From Octopus vulgaris (lineage: Eukaryota), in assembly GCA_951406725.2 (NCBI GenBank), contig OX597837.1:39618001-39682000 (forward strand): a stretch of 64,000 bases of DNA, written 5' to 3'. Each line of letters begins with the position of its first letter. Within the stretch, counting starts at the first letter, position 1. The translations under genes were made by a program, and so were the position numbers. Positions 6,034-63,900 of the stretch are shown piece after piece. A model generated the notes under the pieces. The model was not told the origin of the DNA and ran no database searches. It saw nothing but the letters and a program-made list of their open reading frames with translations.

Positions 6034-43850
<37,817 letters not shown>

Positions 43851-52356: not shown

Positions 52357-55300
52357 CTGAAATGGAGAAGGGTTTTTTTGAAGAATTAGATGCGGGGAGA
52401 GAGAGAGAGTGTTTGTATGAGGGAGGTGGACAGAGGGAGGGAGTGAGTGAAGTGGGGAAACAAGTGTGTTTCTATGAGACAGAGAGAGATACTGTGTTTA
52501 TGTGAATGTATGTCTGTATGTGTGTGTGTGTGTGTGAGAGAGAAGGAGAGAGTGAAAGGGAGAGATGAGAGAGTGTTTGTATCAGAGAAAGAGAGATTAT
52601 GTTTATATCAATGTGTATTTGTAAGTGTTTGTATGTGTGTGTGAGAGAGAGAGGGAGAAAGGGAGGGGGAGAGAGAAGAGGAGGAGAGGGATATAGAGAG
52701 GGGAAGAGAAGAGAGAGAGACAGAGGAAGAGCAAGCAGACACTGTGCTTATGTGAATGTATGTTTGTACATGTGTGTGTGTGTGTGTGAGTATGAGAGAG
52801 TGAAAGGGAGAGAGAGAGTGAAGGAGAGATGAGAGAGTGTTTGTATGAGAGAAAGAGAGGATCCAGTCTGATTTGGTAAGGTTTCTACGGCTGGGTGCCC
52901 TTCCTAACGCCAACCACTCCAAGAGTGTAGTGGGTGCTTTTTATGTGCCACCAACATGGGGGCCAGTCAGGCGGCACTGACATCAGCTATGCTCAAATGG
53001 TGCTTTTTATGTGTCACTGGCACGGGAGCCAGTCAGGCGGAACTGGCACTGACCATGCTCGAATGGTGCTCTTTATGTGCCACCAGCACTGGCACTGACC
53101 ATGCTCGAATGGTGCTCTTTATGTGCCACCAGCACTGGCACTGACCATGTTCGAATGGTGCTCTTTATGTGCCACCAGCACTGGCACTGACCATGCTCGA
53201 ATGGTGCTCTTTATGTGCCACCAGCACTGGCACTGACCATGCTCGAATGGTGCTCTTTATGTGCCACCAGCACTGGCACTGACCATGCTCGAATGGTGCT
53301 CTTTATGTGCCACCAGCACTGGCACTGACCATGCTCGAATGGTGCTCTTTATGTGCCACCAGCACTGGCACTGACCATGCTCGAATGGTGCTCTTTATGT
53401 GCCACCAGCACTGGCACTGACCATGCTCGAATGGTGCTCTTTATGTGCCACCGGCACAGGAGCCAGTCAGGCGGCACTGGCATCAGCCACGCTCAAATGG
53501 TGCTATTTATGTGCCACCGACATAGGAGCCAGTCAGGCGGCACTGGCATTGACTATGCTCAAATGGTGCTCTTTTTGTGTCACCGGCACAGGAGCCAGTC
53601 AGGCGGGACTAGCATCAAGCCAAAATTTTATTTAAAAAAAAAAAAAGAAAAAGGTTAAAATTCAAGAGTGATGACTTACCACGCTGTCATTCGGTTTAGG
53701 CTCAATGCCTATCGCATCAATCACATGTTGAAGGTTTGTTTGACTAGTTGAGTTTAGGGCACCGTTTAGGGCTGATAGTGATTGGTGGACTCTGTCCCCA
53801 ACTTCTTTACTAAACCGATGGTCGACATCATCTCTTTTGTTCTCCTTCTCCATCTCTTCTTCTCCTAATTCTTTGTCATGTTCTTTTTCTTTCTCTTCTT
53901 CTTCCACTTCTTCAACTTCCAATTCTTCTTCTTCATCATCATCTTGTTCTTCTTTGTCTTCCGTTTCTGGGAAAAATAGAGAGATTAACCCTTTTGTTAC
54001 CATATGTATTTTGAGATGCTCTGTTGTTTTTTCAATTACTTTAAATATAACAAAGAATTTAGTAAAATAACTTAGTTATCATTAAACTAGTGTTAGGAAC
54101 ATAAATTGTGACTAAAGTTTTGGTGGAAGATTTTAATTCAGAACTTATGAAAACAAGATATTTGTACTCAGAGCCAGAACTGGTTTCAGCTGGGTTTGTA
54201 TCAAAAGGGTTAAGAGAAGCTATTTAAGAAAGGAAGAATGATTTTATTACTGCTGAGGTCATCTTCACCTTTCATATCTTCAACATCAATATTAATGGGA
54301 CCTGTGGAAATTCTACAGAGTGAGAAAGATTAACCCTTTTATTACCATATTTCTGTTGAGATGCTCTGTGTTTCATTCGATTGATTTTAAATGTGACAAA
54401 GAATTTAGTAAAATAAATTTAGTAAAATTTAGTTATCATTAAGCTAGTGTTAGGAACATAAATTGTGACTAAGGTTTGCTGGAAGATTTTAATTCAGAAC
54501 TTATGAAAACAAGACATTTGTACTACAGAGCCAGAACTGGTTTCAGCCAGGTTGGTAATGAAAGGGTTAAGAGAAGCTATTTAAGAAAGAATGATTTTAT
54601 TGCTGTTGAGGTCATCTTCACCTTTCATATCTTCAGCATCAATACTAATGGGACCTGTGGAAATTCCACAGAGTGAAAAAGATTAACCCTTTTGTTACAA
54701 TATTTCTGTTGAGATGCTCTGTGTTTCTTTTAATTAATTTTAAAAGAATTTAGTAAAGAATTTCTACTAGAAAGTCAGAGACGGTTTCAGGCAGCTTGGT
54801 ATCGAAAGGGTTAAAAGCTAATTAAAATAAATATATAAACATGAGCACTGAGGGAGCGCAAACCTCCGCCAAGGCAACACCAACGTCCTCTCAACGATTA
54901 GCCAGAGATGATTTTTAAAATGAGAATGTCTGAAATGAAGTCGACTGCTCTCACAAACGAGAATACTAAAAATGAACCTGACCGCTCTCAAAAATTGAGT
55001 GAAAAACAATGGAAAAATAATCCAGAATCCTTATCCGGTACCGGATCAATTCCAATGGTAGTCATGGAATATGAATGTGGCTTTCTCTCTCTCTTTACTC
55101 TTTTACTTGTTTCAGTCATTTGACTGCGGCCATGCTGGAGCACTGCCTATAGTCGAGCAAATCGACCCCAGGACTTATTCTTTGTAAGCCCAGTACTTAT
55201 ACTTTCGGTCTCTTTTGCCGAACCGCTAAGTGACGGGGACGTAAACACACCAGCATCGGTTGTCAAGCAATGCTAGGGGGACAAACACAGACACACATAC

Positions 55301-58300
55301 ATATATATATACATATATATGACAGGCTTCTTTCAGTTTCCATCTACCAAATTCACTCACAAAGCATTGGTCGGCCTGGGGCTATAGCAGAAGACACTTG
55401 CCCAAGATGCCACGCAGTGGGACTGAACCCGGAACCATGTGGTTGGTAAGCAAGTTACTTACCACACATCCACTCCTGCGCCCTGTAGAGGCTGTAGAAA
55501 ATTTTGTAACATTCATGTGTGTGTGTGTGTGTCTGTGTGTGTGGTGCAAAAATAAAAAAAGCACATGAAGACAATGTAAAAAAACCAAAACAAACAAACA
55601 AACAAGGTATATTAGGATGATGCTCAAGAGAACTGGAAGAACTCGTCAATGTTTTGAGCCAATTCTCTTCTTCAGGAATGAAAGGAGAGATGAAGAGAGA
55701 ATCTTACCTTGATAAAATTCTTCCTTTTCTTGTCTGTTCTGTTGTTGATTTCCCAGTTGTAATTCTACTTTTGCTGTTTCCTCGTCAACGTCCCTGTAAT
55801 TAACGTGGTGGGGCAAAAAAACAGAACTTTGCAAAATAGCTCAGCTAAACAAAAACACAAAATATGATAAAAACAAAACAAACAAAATACCTTATTCAGG
55901 TAATAAAATAATAATAAATGTGCCCTTTTAAAGCCTAGCCAGGCTCATGGGCCCAGTTTCCTGGTTTCAAAGGCGTATGTGTCCCCCAGCTGGACGGGAT
56001 GCCAGTCCATTGCAGCGTTACTCATTTTTGCCAGCTGAGTGGACTGGAGCAACGTGAAATGCAGTGTTTTGCTCAAGAACACAACATGTTGCCCGGTCCA
56101 AGAATTGAAACCACAATCTTATGATCATGATGCTGACACCCTAACAGAAAACACTGATTATTGTACAGTAAGTAACCAGAATAGATCTGGTACATACTTA
56201 ACTGGCATTCTGCCGGTTAGGACAACAAGGGTTACAGTTGATTTGATCAGCAGAATAGCCTGCTCATGAAATTAATGTGAAAGTGGCTGAGAACTCCACA
56301 GACATGTGTACCCTTAACCCTACCTTACTGTATTTATTTTGAGATGCTCTGTGTTTCTTTGTTTTAACAAAGAATTTAGTAAAATAACTTCGTTATCATT
56401 AAGCTAGTGTTAGGAACGTAAATTGCGTCTAAGGTTTGGTGGAAGATTTTAATTCAGAACTTATGAAAACAAGACATTTGTACTACAGAGCCAGAGCCGG
56501 TTTCAGCTGGGTTGGTATCAAAAGAGTTATGAAAGTTCTCAGGGAGATTCAGCGTGACAGAATGTGGCATTATTACAGATAAAACTCATTTTGACAGTTG
56601 AGCAGAGTGGAGCAACATGAAATGAAGTGTCTTGCTCAAGAGACACAATGTGTCACCAGGAATATATACACATATTTAAACTTGCATTCCATCAGGTTAT
56701 AACAATGGGGATTCCAGTTGATCTGATCAATGGAACAGATGGTAATGAAATTAACGTGCAAGTGGCTGAGCACTCCACAGACATGCGTACCCTTAATGTA
56801 GTTCTCAGGGAGATTCAGTGTGATGACACAGAGTGCGACAAGGCTGGCCCCTTTGAATAACAGGTACAACTCATTTTAGCCAGCCGAGTGGACTGGAGTA
56901 ATGAGAAATAAAGTGTCTTGCTCAAGGTAAAAAATGCCACTGGGAATTGAACTCACGATCATCCCTTAGGTTGGGACCCACCATGCTAAAGGGATCAAAA
57001 GAAATGATTCTGCTTTCCTTACTTAAAGGGAAAAAGCAGTAATGTTACCCACCTGGCCTGTGCCATCCAAACCTCATCAAAATTCTCTTCCACTTCATCA
57101 ATCTCCAACTGCATTTTGGTTTTGTGGTTCTTCAGTTTTTCAGTTTGATCCGAGATTATTTTCCCCAAAACAACTTTCTCGGCCTAACAAGAAACAAAAA
57201 TAAAAGGATACATACAACACATCACCATTCCTGTTTAACATCCAATTTTTAAAAAATGGCACTGGGTGGAGAGACAATTGGGTTGAAGGGGCCCAAGTGG
57301 TGGAAGTATAAGACCAGCCAGCTCTGAGGAGCAGGGGCCATTAAAATAGCAAAATGAAAGATAGAGGAAAGAGACATCATGGTTGAGGACCAGGGTTTGG
57401 AGTGTGTCCATCAGTGATGGAGTACCAATCATTTGAGTGGCTCTTCTCTAGATGTGGCCCAGAATGTGTGCATGACAGCAGCACTGTCCTAAATGTGGAA
57501 GTAGAAAGCAATTTTGGGTCATACTTGAGACTCAGGGTGAAGTTCTATGCAAAAGATGTACTTTCGACCCTAGGACTTATTCTATTGGCCTCTTTTGCCG
57601 AACTGCTAAGTTACAGGGACATAAACACACCAGCATCGGTTGTCAAGCGATGTTGGGGGGACAAACACAGACACACAAACATATACACACACATACATAC
57701 ATACATATATATATATATTTATATATATATATATATATATATATACGACAGGCTTCTTTCAGTTTCTATCTGCCAAATCCACTCACAAGGCTTTGGTTGG
57801 CCCGAGGCTATAGTAGAAGACACTTGCCCAAGGTGCCACGCAGTGGGACTGAACCCGGAACCATGTGGTTGGTAAGCAAGCTACTTACTACAGAGCCACT
57901 CCTGAGCTTCAGTGATAGCAATGCCCAGAATTTGGAGTGAGAGTGAGAGCTCTAGCTGAGTGTCACTCATATTTAGAGGAAGTCTGAGATGGTGCTGTTT
58001 TGGGAGCACCAACTCACCTTCAATACCACTAACCCTTCTTTCATGATGGTTTCAAATTTTGGCACAAGGCTAGCAGTTTTGAGGGAGTGGGTAAGTCCAT
58101 TTACATTGACCCCCAGTGATCAACTGGTACCTATTTTATCAACCCTGAAAGAATGAAAGACAAAGTCGACCCCAGCAGCATTTGAACTCAGAACACAAAT
58201 TCAGAGGAAATGCCATGAAGCATTTTCTCTGGGATGGTAGCGATTCTGCTAGCTTGCTGCCTTAACTCTTCTTTCATCTTAGAATAACATCAGGTACACC

Positions 58301-60925: not shown

Positions 60926-63900
60926 GGTAAGCTTCTTTCAATTACTGTCAACGAAATTAATTCACAAAGCTTTAGTCGACCTGAGGCTATAGTACAAAGA
61001 CTTGCCCAAGGTGCTGTGCAGTGAGATTGAACCTGAGACCACTTGGTTTGGCAGCAAGTCTCTTAACCACACAGCCATGCCAGCAACCTAAACGCAATTC
61101 CATATCAATCCCAATAATATTTGTACTTACATCAGATCGTCATTCTGCTGCTTAATCAAAAGTCGAAATTTATAAATTTCGTGTTCGCCTTCCTGCCGCT
61201 GTTTCTCGGATTCTTCAAGATTCATTGTGAGGCTCTCGTTTGCAGCTTCCAAATTCTGAAATCCAAATGATAACATCTAGAATATAATCCTTTCTACTAA
61301 AAGCACAAAGCCTGAAATTTTTGGGGAAAGGACTAGTTGGTTACATTGACCCCCCAGTGTTTGGAGTGACAGTGGGAGCTCTAGCTGAGTGTCACTCATA
61401 TTTAGAGGAAGTCTGAGATGGTGCTGTTTTGGGAGTACCTACTCACCTTCAGTACCACTAACCCTTCTTCCATAATGGTTTCAAATTTTGGCACTAGGCT
61501 AGCAGTTTCGAGGGAGGGGGTATATAGGAAGCAAAGTGATTTTTACCTCTCGTTTCCTTTGTAGAACTTTGCATTCAGATTCCATGGATTCAAATTGTCC
61601 CTGGAGGATGTCTTTTTCCTCTTGGACAGCTTTCAATTGCTTCTCACATTCCTGCGGAAAATAATATCAAAATAACAATAATAATAATAGTAAGAATGGT
61701 TTCAAATTTTGGCACATCATCATTATCATCATCGTTTAACACCCGTTTTCCATGCTAGCATGGGTTGGACGGTTCAACCAGGGTCTGGGAAGCCAGGAGG
61801 CAGCACCAGGCCCAGTCTGATCTGGCAGTGTTTCTACAGCTGGATGCCCTTCCTAACGCCAACCGCTCCGCGAGTGTAGTGGGTGCTTTTTACAGCCACG
61901 ATCAGTTGGTGCTTTTTATGCACAAGGCCGATATATTCAAGGGACGGGGGCTAGCGGATTGCATCGACCACTCCCAGTGCTTAACTGGTACTTATTTTTT
62001 TGATCCCAAAAGCAAAGTTGACCTTGGCAGAATTTGAACTCAGAACGTAAGGCCAAACAGAATGCCGCTAAGCATTTTGCCTGATGTGCTAATTATTCTA
62101 CTAGCTTGCTACTGTAATAATAACGATGACGATGATGATGATGATAATAATAATAAATGCCCTGAGGCAGTGGCTCTCATGGCTTCTTATCTTAACTGAT
62201 TGGAAGTGTTATCATGTACATTGTTTTGTCTTGGTATAAAAGATAGCCTACAGCAAATATTCTGCTCAATACCACAGATTTGCTTGTCAGTTGTTTGACC
62301 TTAACCAGTTGAGGATGTCCCTTAGCAGCTGACGATACGTGCATCTCTGATCATGAGCAGAAGTAATGGGGGAGCATCTTAGCCATGTGTTGAGAGGGAT
62401 TCTTTGGGGTTTGAATAATTCACTTCTGGAAACATGGGTGTTTTGTTCAACATCCTTAAACAACGCTTATTGAGGGACCTTTTGAGCAGGATGGGCTACT
62501 CGACCAGAAGAAAATTCTAACTGGGTCCCACCTGCAAGGTCATGCGCTGTTTATCTTGATATGAGATCACCATGTCGCGCACATATGGTTGTGATGCATG
62601 TGCCTGGTGTATCAGACGGGTAGTCATGATGGGTATATTGGGCTTCGTATATTTTACCCCAGTGTCACTTTGATGGCATGAACTGCTCTCTCACTCAATA
62701 ATAATAATAATAATAATGTTAACGATGGTGGTGATGATGATCATGATGATTATAATAATAATGGTTTCTGGTTTAGGTACAAATTCAGCAGTTTTGAAGG
62801 GAAAGGGATTCACTCTTTCGTTACCAACCTTGACTGAAACCACCTCTGGCTCTGTAGTACAAATGTCTTGTTTCCATAAGTTTTTCATTAAAATCTTCCA
62901 CCAAACCTTAATCACAATTCATGTTCCTAACACTAGTTTAATGATAACCAAGTTATTTTACTAAATTCTTTGTCACATTTAAAATCAATTAAAAGAAACA
63001 CAGAGCATCTCAACAGAAATATGGTAACAAAAGGGTTAATCTTTTTCACTCTGTGGAATTTCCACAGGTCCCATTAGTATTGATGTTGAAGATATGAAAG
63101 GTGAAGATGACCTCAACAGCAATAAAATCATTCTTCCTTCCTTAAATAGCTTCTCTTAACCCTTTTGATACCAACCTGGCTGAAACTGGCTCTGGCTCTG
63201 AGTACAAATGTCTTGTTTCCATAAGTTTTGAATTAAAATCTTCCACCAAATCTTAGTCACAATTTATGTTCCTAACACTAGCTTAATGATAACTAAGTTA
63301 TTTTACTAAATTCTTTGTTTATATTTAAAATAAATTGAAAGAAACACAGAGCATCTCAACAGAAATACGGTAACGAAAGGGATTAATCAATTTCATTGAC
63401 CCTAGTACTTGATTTGTACTCTAATTTATCACTGACCCTGGAAAGACAAAAGGGAGGACGTTACCTTTAACCTTTCCGTAAGCTGCTGGATTCGCTGGTT
63501 CTTCTCGTCGTCATGTCCATCTGCAGATTTGCTGCGTTTCTCCATGCTGTGCATCTTGCGCAAGAACGTTTTATGCAACCGCTCATGTTCGGTTCTTAGA
63601 AGAGCTGCCTGGAATGGTAAAAAGCAAAGCAAAAACTCATTGGATAAATCAAAGTATGATGAAGAACTGAATAATTTATCATCATCATCATCATCGTTTA
63701 ACGTCCGCTTTCCATGCTAGAAACCAGACCAAACCAGACTGGAGTCTGGTGCAGCCCCTCAGCTTATCAGCTCTGGTCAAAAACTGTCTAACCGATGGAA
63801 AGCGGACGCTGATGATGACAATGCTGATTGGATGGAGTTTGAGGAAACGGAATATTATTTATTCCGTTTGCAAAACAATGGGGACCAAACAGTAATAATA

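Follow-up and report, generated by a model that had tools for sequence, protein, structure and literature searches.

A short spacer carried between piggyBac-type MITEs has spread locally around one source in the genome of Octopus vulgaris: 49 of its 50 copies lie between 31.3 and 44.2 Mb on contig C24, a region that makes up 0.46% of the genome, and the remaining copy lies on C7. Judged by its sequence, the spacer combines the permuted end of a Helitron-like repeat with 45 bases of single-copy DNA and is not a captured exon.

Composites in the window and the parts of the spacer

The window is a stretch of 64,000 nucleotides in which five copies of the spacer had been noticed between TTAA-flanked MITEs. 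All five were located, at 91–96% identity to the copy at 54571–54682 and with the one at 63040–63155 inverted, and the surrounding MITEs were each confirmed as an element of about 229 bp bounded by TTAA, with CCCTTT...AAAGGG ends. The features of the array and its host gene, and the other composites, are as follows.

55708..55793, minus strand: upstream CEP63-like exon with a phase-1 donor, placed by sequence and contig depth
53680..53966, minus strand: downstream CEP63-like exon
53985..54814, minus strand: whole array (MITE-spacer-MITE-spacer-internally deleted MITE) with TTAA at each outer end, in the last long CEP63-like intron seen and 18 bases from the real acceptor
53985..54213, minus strand: MITE arm of 229 bp including both TTAA, with piggyBac-type ends
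54214..54329, minus strand: first spacer copy, 116 bp
54330..54570, minus strand: middle MITE arm, with a haplotype limited to three C24 composites (37.80, 38.72 and 39.67 Mb)
54571..54682, minus strand: second spacer copy, 112 bp, with a 4-base deletion
54571..54598, minus strand: part of the Helitron-like repeat H that precedes the TTAA in empty copies
54600..54644, minus strand: 45-base linker (barcode), homologous to C24:37,295,761–37,295,805 (87% for this copy, as much as 93% for other copies)
54645..54682, minus strand: last 38 bases of repeat H, with the terminal CTAG changed to TTAG
54655..54671, minus strand: 17-base palindrome, the terminal hairpin of H, whose final two bases are the AG that had been read as a splice acceptor
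54683..54814, minus strand: internally deleted MITE arm, keeping positions 1–59 and 168–229
39465..40004, minus strand: second composite, with its spacer at 39686–39801
40923..41369, minus strand: third composite, with one arm truncated and its spacer at 41151–41266
62809..63388, plus strand: fourth composite, inverted and antisense in the CEP63-like gene, with its spacer at 63040–63155

The predicted CEP63-like identity of the host was supported by an exon further upstream on the same strand (L069), which matches Pfam CEP63 with an E value of 1.2e-8, above the curated cut-off. In X2 and X4, two of the runs guessed to be RNA (14 were so guessed among 20), the binned depths agree exactly with one contig covering 55708–55796 at a depth of 18 and 12.5, respectively, and the contigs on the downstream exon have equal depths; the X2 contig of depth 18 fits exactly as far as 53680 and continues for 167 letters beyond. 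These equal depths make it likely that one and the same contig in each run spans the normal CEP63-like junction. No Pfam match was obtained for the host of the 39686 and 41151 copies, nor for an exon at 39127–39408 of a possible CEP295-like gene. Two very long exons on the minus strand (8172–11621 and 13800–15506) presumably belong to a second gene, possibly CEP295-like. The CEP63-like gene contains composites of both orientations (at 54 kb and 63 kb). Four of five spacers had been counted as sense to their hosts, but the 54214 and 54571 copies form one array, leaving three of four independent sites in the sense orientation (p = 0.31). For CEP63, the composite is most likely an old intronic insertion without consequence.

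The arms are short (229 bp), non-coding and of high copy number, with 12–13-base inverted repeats beginning CCCTTT. Short terminal inverted repeats starting CCC or CCY are typical of piggyBac-type MITEs. A 29-mer from the MITE had 6105 exact matches genome-wide, of which the first 100 places listed were all on C1. When composites were excised in silico, six sites gave a spanning match; two of these (L046 and L066) corresponded to empty paralogous repeats across a single TTAA, indicating that the TTAA target was duplicated at insertion, and the other four were not clean. We rejected a Helentron or HINE identity for the arms, as their true terminal repeats and TTAA duplication conflict with the description of those elements in the available text of PMC4067079. 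In most of the MITE loci sampled on C1 (L057–L063 and L107–L126), one of three short spacers separates the units of a dimer or trimer, and at C1:1,290,900–1,307,000 (L064, L065) about 65 head-to-tail MITE units with a 16-base spacer form a 246-bp satellite. Elsewhere, L066 holds an inverted pair of composites a few hundred bases apart, and at L022:1718–2589 an 870-base piece, LINE-like by eye, interrupts the middle arm of the array.

Repeat H accounts for 69 of the 116 spacer bases, all from its 3′ end. The first 38 and last 31 bases of the spacer are the two sides of one H TTAA with their order swapped, and the reference spacer copy is identical to the H majority sequence at 34/38 and 29/31 positions, respectively. 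Contigs from X2, X4 and X18 link the spacer end directly to the spacer start over one TTAA, and cease to fit the spacer just past the hairpin. The motif across this join has 66 exact matches on 26 contigs genome-wide, and aligning 30 of them defined H as a dispersed repeat of about 430–500 bp. Its 3′ end consists of a 17-base palindrome with a 7-pair stem, six bases, CTAG and then T; CTAG was followed by T in 14 of the 30 copies and by C in one, the other 15 being decayed or unmatched at this point. The palindrome stops 10 bases short of the end of H, where similarity between copies also stops. The 5′ part could be aligned in 19 of the 30 copies and showed A, then TC, with an unrelated flank clearly in two; many copies are alike further upstream, giving two 5′ types. 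This arrangement of palindrome, six bases, CTAG and T is that of a canonical Helitron 3′ end, in which a 16–20-base palindrome lies about 11 bases from the end, followed by CTRR and the target T (PMC4067079). A MITE in this particular TTAA of H was seen in the composite family only (36 of 37 matches), the remaining match being an empty H.

The 45 bases in the middle have their counterpart at one single-copy site free of MITEs, C24:37,295,761–37,295,805 (37.296 Mb). A genome search with the linker gave 37 candidates, all scored, which were the source itself and 36 composites (40–53 bases, 85–93%); this uniqueness is that of a DNA search which skips very common words. The source stretch was examined for being near the centre of the cloud of copies, so its location, but not its uniqueness, was partly guided. 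Neither H nor a MITE was found in the 10-kb stretch around the source, other than a 28-base scrap, and the founder allele was not found there. By eye, simple and dispersed repeats surround the linker donor, and no acceptor precedes it. Also by eye, the linker copy at the source closes with a short H-like stretch right before the retained H piece, which would fit a microhomology duplication as the founding event. A MITE-free donor, as the original prediction anticipated, exists for this part of the spacer.

Other origins were considered. When the linker was aligned as a decayed internal part of H, 26 of 1000 shuffles reached the same score, and this idea gave way to the 37.296 Mb match at 87–93%. 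The locus L022 (C24:37.49 Mb), where the spacer stands without a left arm, was tried as a donor exon and rejected; its flank belongs to a dispersed repeat (545 candidates) and lacks H context, and the left arm may have been lost. L042 (36.66 Mb), which begins near the linker, was considered as a donor and has only eight extra bases in common with the source. The spacer is not an end-to-end inside piece of a longer consensus, since the arms are also found alone or next to other spacers.

Spacers differ from their own majority sequence by 0.037, which at the rate of 0.0036 per Myr used in the octopus repeat paper (PMC13282606) gives the family an age of about 10 Myr, the rate being borrowed. Summed contig depth, which is not copy number, hints at many spacer copies in X16 and X20 and at one or two linker copies in X18.

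Source-centred spread of the spacer

Confinement of the spacer was seen with every exact or near-exact pattern used, as 28 of 28, 35 of 35 and 48 of 49 matches fell on C24 between 31.3 and 44.2 Mb; one further copy, from the second of these sets, brings the sum to 49 on C24 and one on C7. The C24 copies make up 43 sites, or about 39 if a fourfold segmental duplication is counted once and the parts of a split array are joined. Their median position is 37.39 Mb, 0.1 Mb from the linker source. Distance to that source has a median of 1.7 Mb and a maximum of 6.9 Mb; out of the 43 sites, 15 are at most 1 Mb away, 25 at most 2 Mb and 37 at most 3 Mb. In contrast, both the MITE (6105 exact matches) and H (66, on 26 contigs) occur genome-wide. 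Also on C24, the minus strand of 37,449,746–37,449,906 (L050) holds an exon candidate resembling what we take to be a death-domain piece of a Pelle/IRAK-type kinase.

Gap patterns that require the arm haplotype found beside the spacer (the inner-end haplotype, see below) returned 37 and 60 further end pairs, mostly around unique spacers, with some repeated. A second spacer of 77–91 bases had 27 matches, one on C12 and 26 in four tight colonies; flanks were unrelated in the seven of 27 copies that were read. The colonies are as follows.

C26, 22.4–28.9 Mb: 13 copies
C23, 42.1–43.4 Mb: 6 copies
C20, 70.8–71.1 Mb: 5 copies
C23, 27.9–28.2 Mb: 2 copies

All four matches of a third spacer (91 bases) lie at C23:7.3–10.1 Mb, within 2.8 Mb of each other and with unrelated flanks, and another repeated spacer has two copies on C11, 120 kb apart, again with unrelated flanks; the counts for these last two spacers are those that the gap patterns returned. 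A group on C29 was rejected as a further colony, its flanks being 97–99.8% identical and hence a segmental duplication. Short spacers (12–23 bases between TTAAs) are unconfined, the 23-base one occurring on C1, C24 and other contigs, and these high-copy families have escaped or predate confinement.

How the composite may have moved

We hold with about even confidence that the composite spread some 10 Myr ago by cut-and-paste hops, mostly of a few Mb along the same chromosome, and was later altered by gene conversion. A copy of the Helitron-like repeat with a MITE in its TTAA would first have adjoined the linker, on an allele that is now lost. Either a tandem duplication guided by microhomology or a second MITE insertion would then have produced the MITE-spacer-MITE unit, and a transposase acting in trans would have moved this unit by its outer ends to new TTAA sites, the inner end probably being a weak variant. 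Repeated local hops could have built the cloud about the source, with a single escape to C7, and the later scrambling of the arms would be due to gene conversion between them and the other MITE copies, of which there are thousands.

Inspection of 43 arrays or fragments showed outer ends at TTAA and flanks that were unrelated, except in one fourfold segmental duplication. This part of the original prediction, that two MITEs bracket a captured spacer and carry it, agrees with the many unrelated TTAA sites; what found no support is that the cargo is an exon or terminal-exon module, given its origin in H and the lack of selection described below. An arm haplotype was co-inherited with the spacer in three of three matches, all within 1.9 Mb, and a spacer with a 15-base deletion is present at both 39.247 and 39.409 Mb on C24. 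Closer relatives tended to lie nearer to each other (Mantel rho 0.22, p = 0.027; 34 sites), and the nearest relative was 1.4 Mb away compared with 2.5 Mb in permutations (p = 0.004; 34 sites), although the Mantel signal could come from the central copies being more homogenised. Of the left arms, 33 of 34 carried the inner-end haplotype, as did 17 of 18 first arms in C1 dimers, compared with 3 of 18 solo ends; the y and z spacer families, which were found by a pattern requiring this haplotype, are excluded from the count. The arm end beside the spacer differs from free ends by two CpG-type changes, and a shared haplotype at this end would be expected where a weak inner end lets composites travel. 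Published data point both ways on the mode of movement: local hopping is general among cut-and-paste elements (PMC3878927; PMC12477314), but the passages available on engineered piggyBac report little or none (PMC3878927; PMC2952874).

In the three-spacer array at C24:39.246–39.248 Mb (L014), the end of one spacer repeats the 5′ flank as the result of a tandem duplication at a microhomology, and its 15-base-deleted variant recurs 160 kb away.

The arms carry little clonal signal. Distances are 0.093 between left arms and 0.087 between right arms, compared with 0.097–0.100 to solo copies on C1 and 0.062 between spacers. All four gametes were present in 82% of informative site pairs more than 60 bases apart, and the arms are near linkage equilibrium (r2 of 0.03–0.04 beyond 20 bases). 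Since clonal hopping alone does not give arms nearly without clade signal, gene conversion must be added. Allele frequencies at the outer ends resemble those of solo copies, and three arrays on C24 and one on C23 mix two spacer types, which points to recombination inside the arms.

A possible alternative, to which we give appreciably less than even confidence, is that the spacer and adjoining arm ends were copied into resident MITEs by homologous recombination with a strong preference for templates in the same region, either through break repair from a nearby composite or through re-entry of a MITE-plus-spacer circle, so that transposition of composites is unneeded. Diversity is indeed lowest in the spacer and the 30 arm bases beside its start (0.04–0.06) and is family-like farther out (0.09–0.15). 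The arms being almost as distant from each other as from C1 solos, the solo-like outer ends and the chimeric arrays favour copying as well, and in other families both spacer-side ends are nearly fixed, with right-arm starts of 16/17, 6/7 and 3/3. Repair in Drosophila also prefers intrachromosomal templates (PMC6829126). However, the right-arm start of the C24 family lies 12 bases from the spacer and shows two states in a 16:14 ratio where recombination predicts a clonal one, and the far end of the right arm has one haplotype in 22 of 28 copies vs. 9 of 18 solos (p = 0.058). Copying also leaves unexplained why one inner-end haplotype is common to unrelated spacers, and the left and right arms within a composite are barely more alike than chance (0.080 vs. 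0.087). Whether by hopping or by recombination, a large amount of gene conversion is needed, and the 16:14 split is accounted for by neither. It is a tentative and rather doubtful proposition that spacers, as passive cargo copied into resident MITEs, home through the MITE family by cis-biased recombination, forming Mb-scale colonies without transposition, in which case the spacer would be a dated tracer of chromosome proximity in the germline.

It is very improbable that rolling-circle replication through the retained hairpin carried the unit and built the arrays. The spacer does hold a Helitron-type hairpin and end, and tandem arrays are present, yet none of the 43 arrays or fragments stops at a Helitron terminus; the intact ones end in the MITE terminal inverted repeat and TTAA, and no Helitron part was noticed by eye in the other clustered spacers. 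Equally improbable, in our view, is an origin of the cluster in segmental duplication or in a chromosomal niche rich in MITEs instead of in local movement. Four copies at C24:38.86–39.05 Mb have common flanks, as does the C29 group, but the remaining flanks are unrelated, and a niche would not be centred on the linker source. Moreover, the region has no unusual richness in MITEs: 190 kb of C24 sequence read without targeting contained a single solo MITE, and composites were absent from it. The four copies (L018–L021) are near-identical blocks 45–100 kb apart, one of them inverted, and represent a recent segmental duplication.

Least probable of all, and almost certainly wrong, is the reading of the spacer as a captured exon spread as a mobile terminal-exon module that gives CEP63 an alternative C-terminus. 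The frame, the AATAAA and a phase-1 join from 55708 do yield the predicted C-terminal tail, and the phase suits the intron. The AG is retained in 48 of 48 scored copies (one partial copy was omitted) and AATAAA in 45 of 48, the 15-base linker deletions preserve the frame, and piggyBac elements can serve as terminal exons (PMC2268245). A stop supplied by the TTAA had also been proposed, and the final TTAA provides it in those copies (31 of 48) whose frame is 29 codons long; in the 54571 copy an internal TTAA does. Against an exon, both the acceptor and the hairpin are of Helitron origin. The 8+1+8 palindrome predicted around the AG is exact at 54655–54671 but is broken by a single mismatch in the copies at 54214 and 39686, and the AG itself is a variant of the H hairpin stem (AG in 10 and GG in 11 of 30 empty H copies). 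Against its conservation in every scored copy stands that 25% of all neighbouring base pairs in the spacer never vary. The spacer is thus largely transposon sequence; no host-gene homolog was found, and a Pfam search with the predicted peptide had no result even with E values of up to 1 admitted.

No purifying selection was seen over the first 21 codons of 45 distinct spacers, which had 24 nonsynonymous and 3 synonymous changes vs. 19.7 and 7.1 expected under an assumed transition weight of 6, a synonymous deficit if anything (p = 0.05). The lack of a stop in these codons, which would favour an exon, compares with 0.2 nonsense changes expected. The C-terminal frame is shifted or altered in at least 15 of 48 copies. 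An exon-like look arises readily by chance: 74% of 5000 first-order Markov shuffles had YAG with at least 22 open codons on any strand, and the opposite strand of the spacer is also open for 38 codons. The tract ahead of the spacer AG has 6 of 12 pyrimidines vs. 11 of 12 at the real acceptor.

All four RNA-type contigs on the spacer (X2 and X4) continue through the AG into the preceding sequence, three consisting of nothing but an H end and the fourth of an unspliced composite in which T-to-C changes are numerous, and in each of these runs a single contig depth, from which we infer one contig, explains both flanking exons. Among the 15 joints listed, with 438 more beyond the listing, when contigs of 4 of the 20 runs were compared with 53600–55900, where repeats swamped the output, none led from 55708 to the spacer. 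No X2 or X4 contig started at the spacer acceptor, a blank that carries no weight as contigs drop rare variants, and the acceptor may still see occasional use. The unspliced composite, an X2 contig of 177 bases and depth 2.7 on L022:1504–1595, equals none of the composite copies compared, and its T-to-C changes are as from A-to-I hyper-editing on the opposite strand.

Related systems and meaning of the cloud

IS50 and IS10 composites have one weak arm, and one inner end of the octopus composite likewise looks degenerate. Bacterial TIME-COMPs (PMC13367494) resemble it in that two short elements bracket and carry the intervening DNA. Unlike all of these, the octopus composites are in an animal genome, with direct-repeat arms scrambled by conversion and many independent, non-coding cargoes of 12–130 bases. 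Sleeping Beauty, P, Tol2 and Ac/Ds (PMC3878927; PMC12477314) share with them a strong bias to the donor chromosome and neighborhood with rare long jumps; those data come from single hops of engineered donors, whereas the octopus cloud is a multi-step fossil of about 13 Mb round an identified source. It also belongs to a piggyBac-type family, a group which the available passages of PMC3878927 and PMC2952874 report as hopping locally little or not at all.

Tandem TE dimers and satellites of Drosophila (PMC5932611) are similarly head-to-tail, with a junction that records the locus of origin, and their array expansion has a counterpart in the 246-bp array on C1. The Drosophila dimers remain where they arose or expand there, but the octopus dimer and its junction recur at about 40 separate sites. 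PGBD3 in intron 5 of CSB, with its MER85 MITEs (PMC2268245), is like the spacer in being intronic piggyBac-type DNA with an apparent acceptor and a poly(A) signal. It is, however, spliced, abundant and conserved for more than 43 Myr, whereas the spacer has a weak, Helitron-derived acceptor, no conserved frame and no spliced contig seen. Repeat H resembles canonical non-autonomous Helitrons (PMC4067079) in its 17-base palindrome about 10 bases before the CTAG end, followed by T; the spacer differs from them in that only 69 H bases are left in it, with their order swapped, and that these have no part in bounding the mobile unit. Among the open papers covered, we found no report of barcoded, regionally confined MITE composites, and the octopus repeat paper (PMC13282606), in its available text, gives hot and cold spots only.

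The reach of DNA transposons in a natural germline is known mostly from engineered donors, because natural copies of a family cannot be traced to their source. Here an accidental cargo tags sub-lineages of one abundant MITE, and the source of one tag is identifiable, at the centre of its cloud. The dispersal kernel can thus be measured directly, with a median of 1.7 Mb from the source and one copy in 50 off the chromosome. For a piggyBac-type family, the colonies form a pattern of a rare long jump followed by local growth, and assemblies of relatives would make hopping versus conversion testable at each site.
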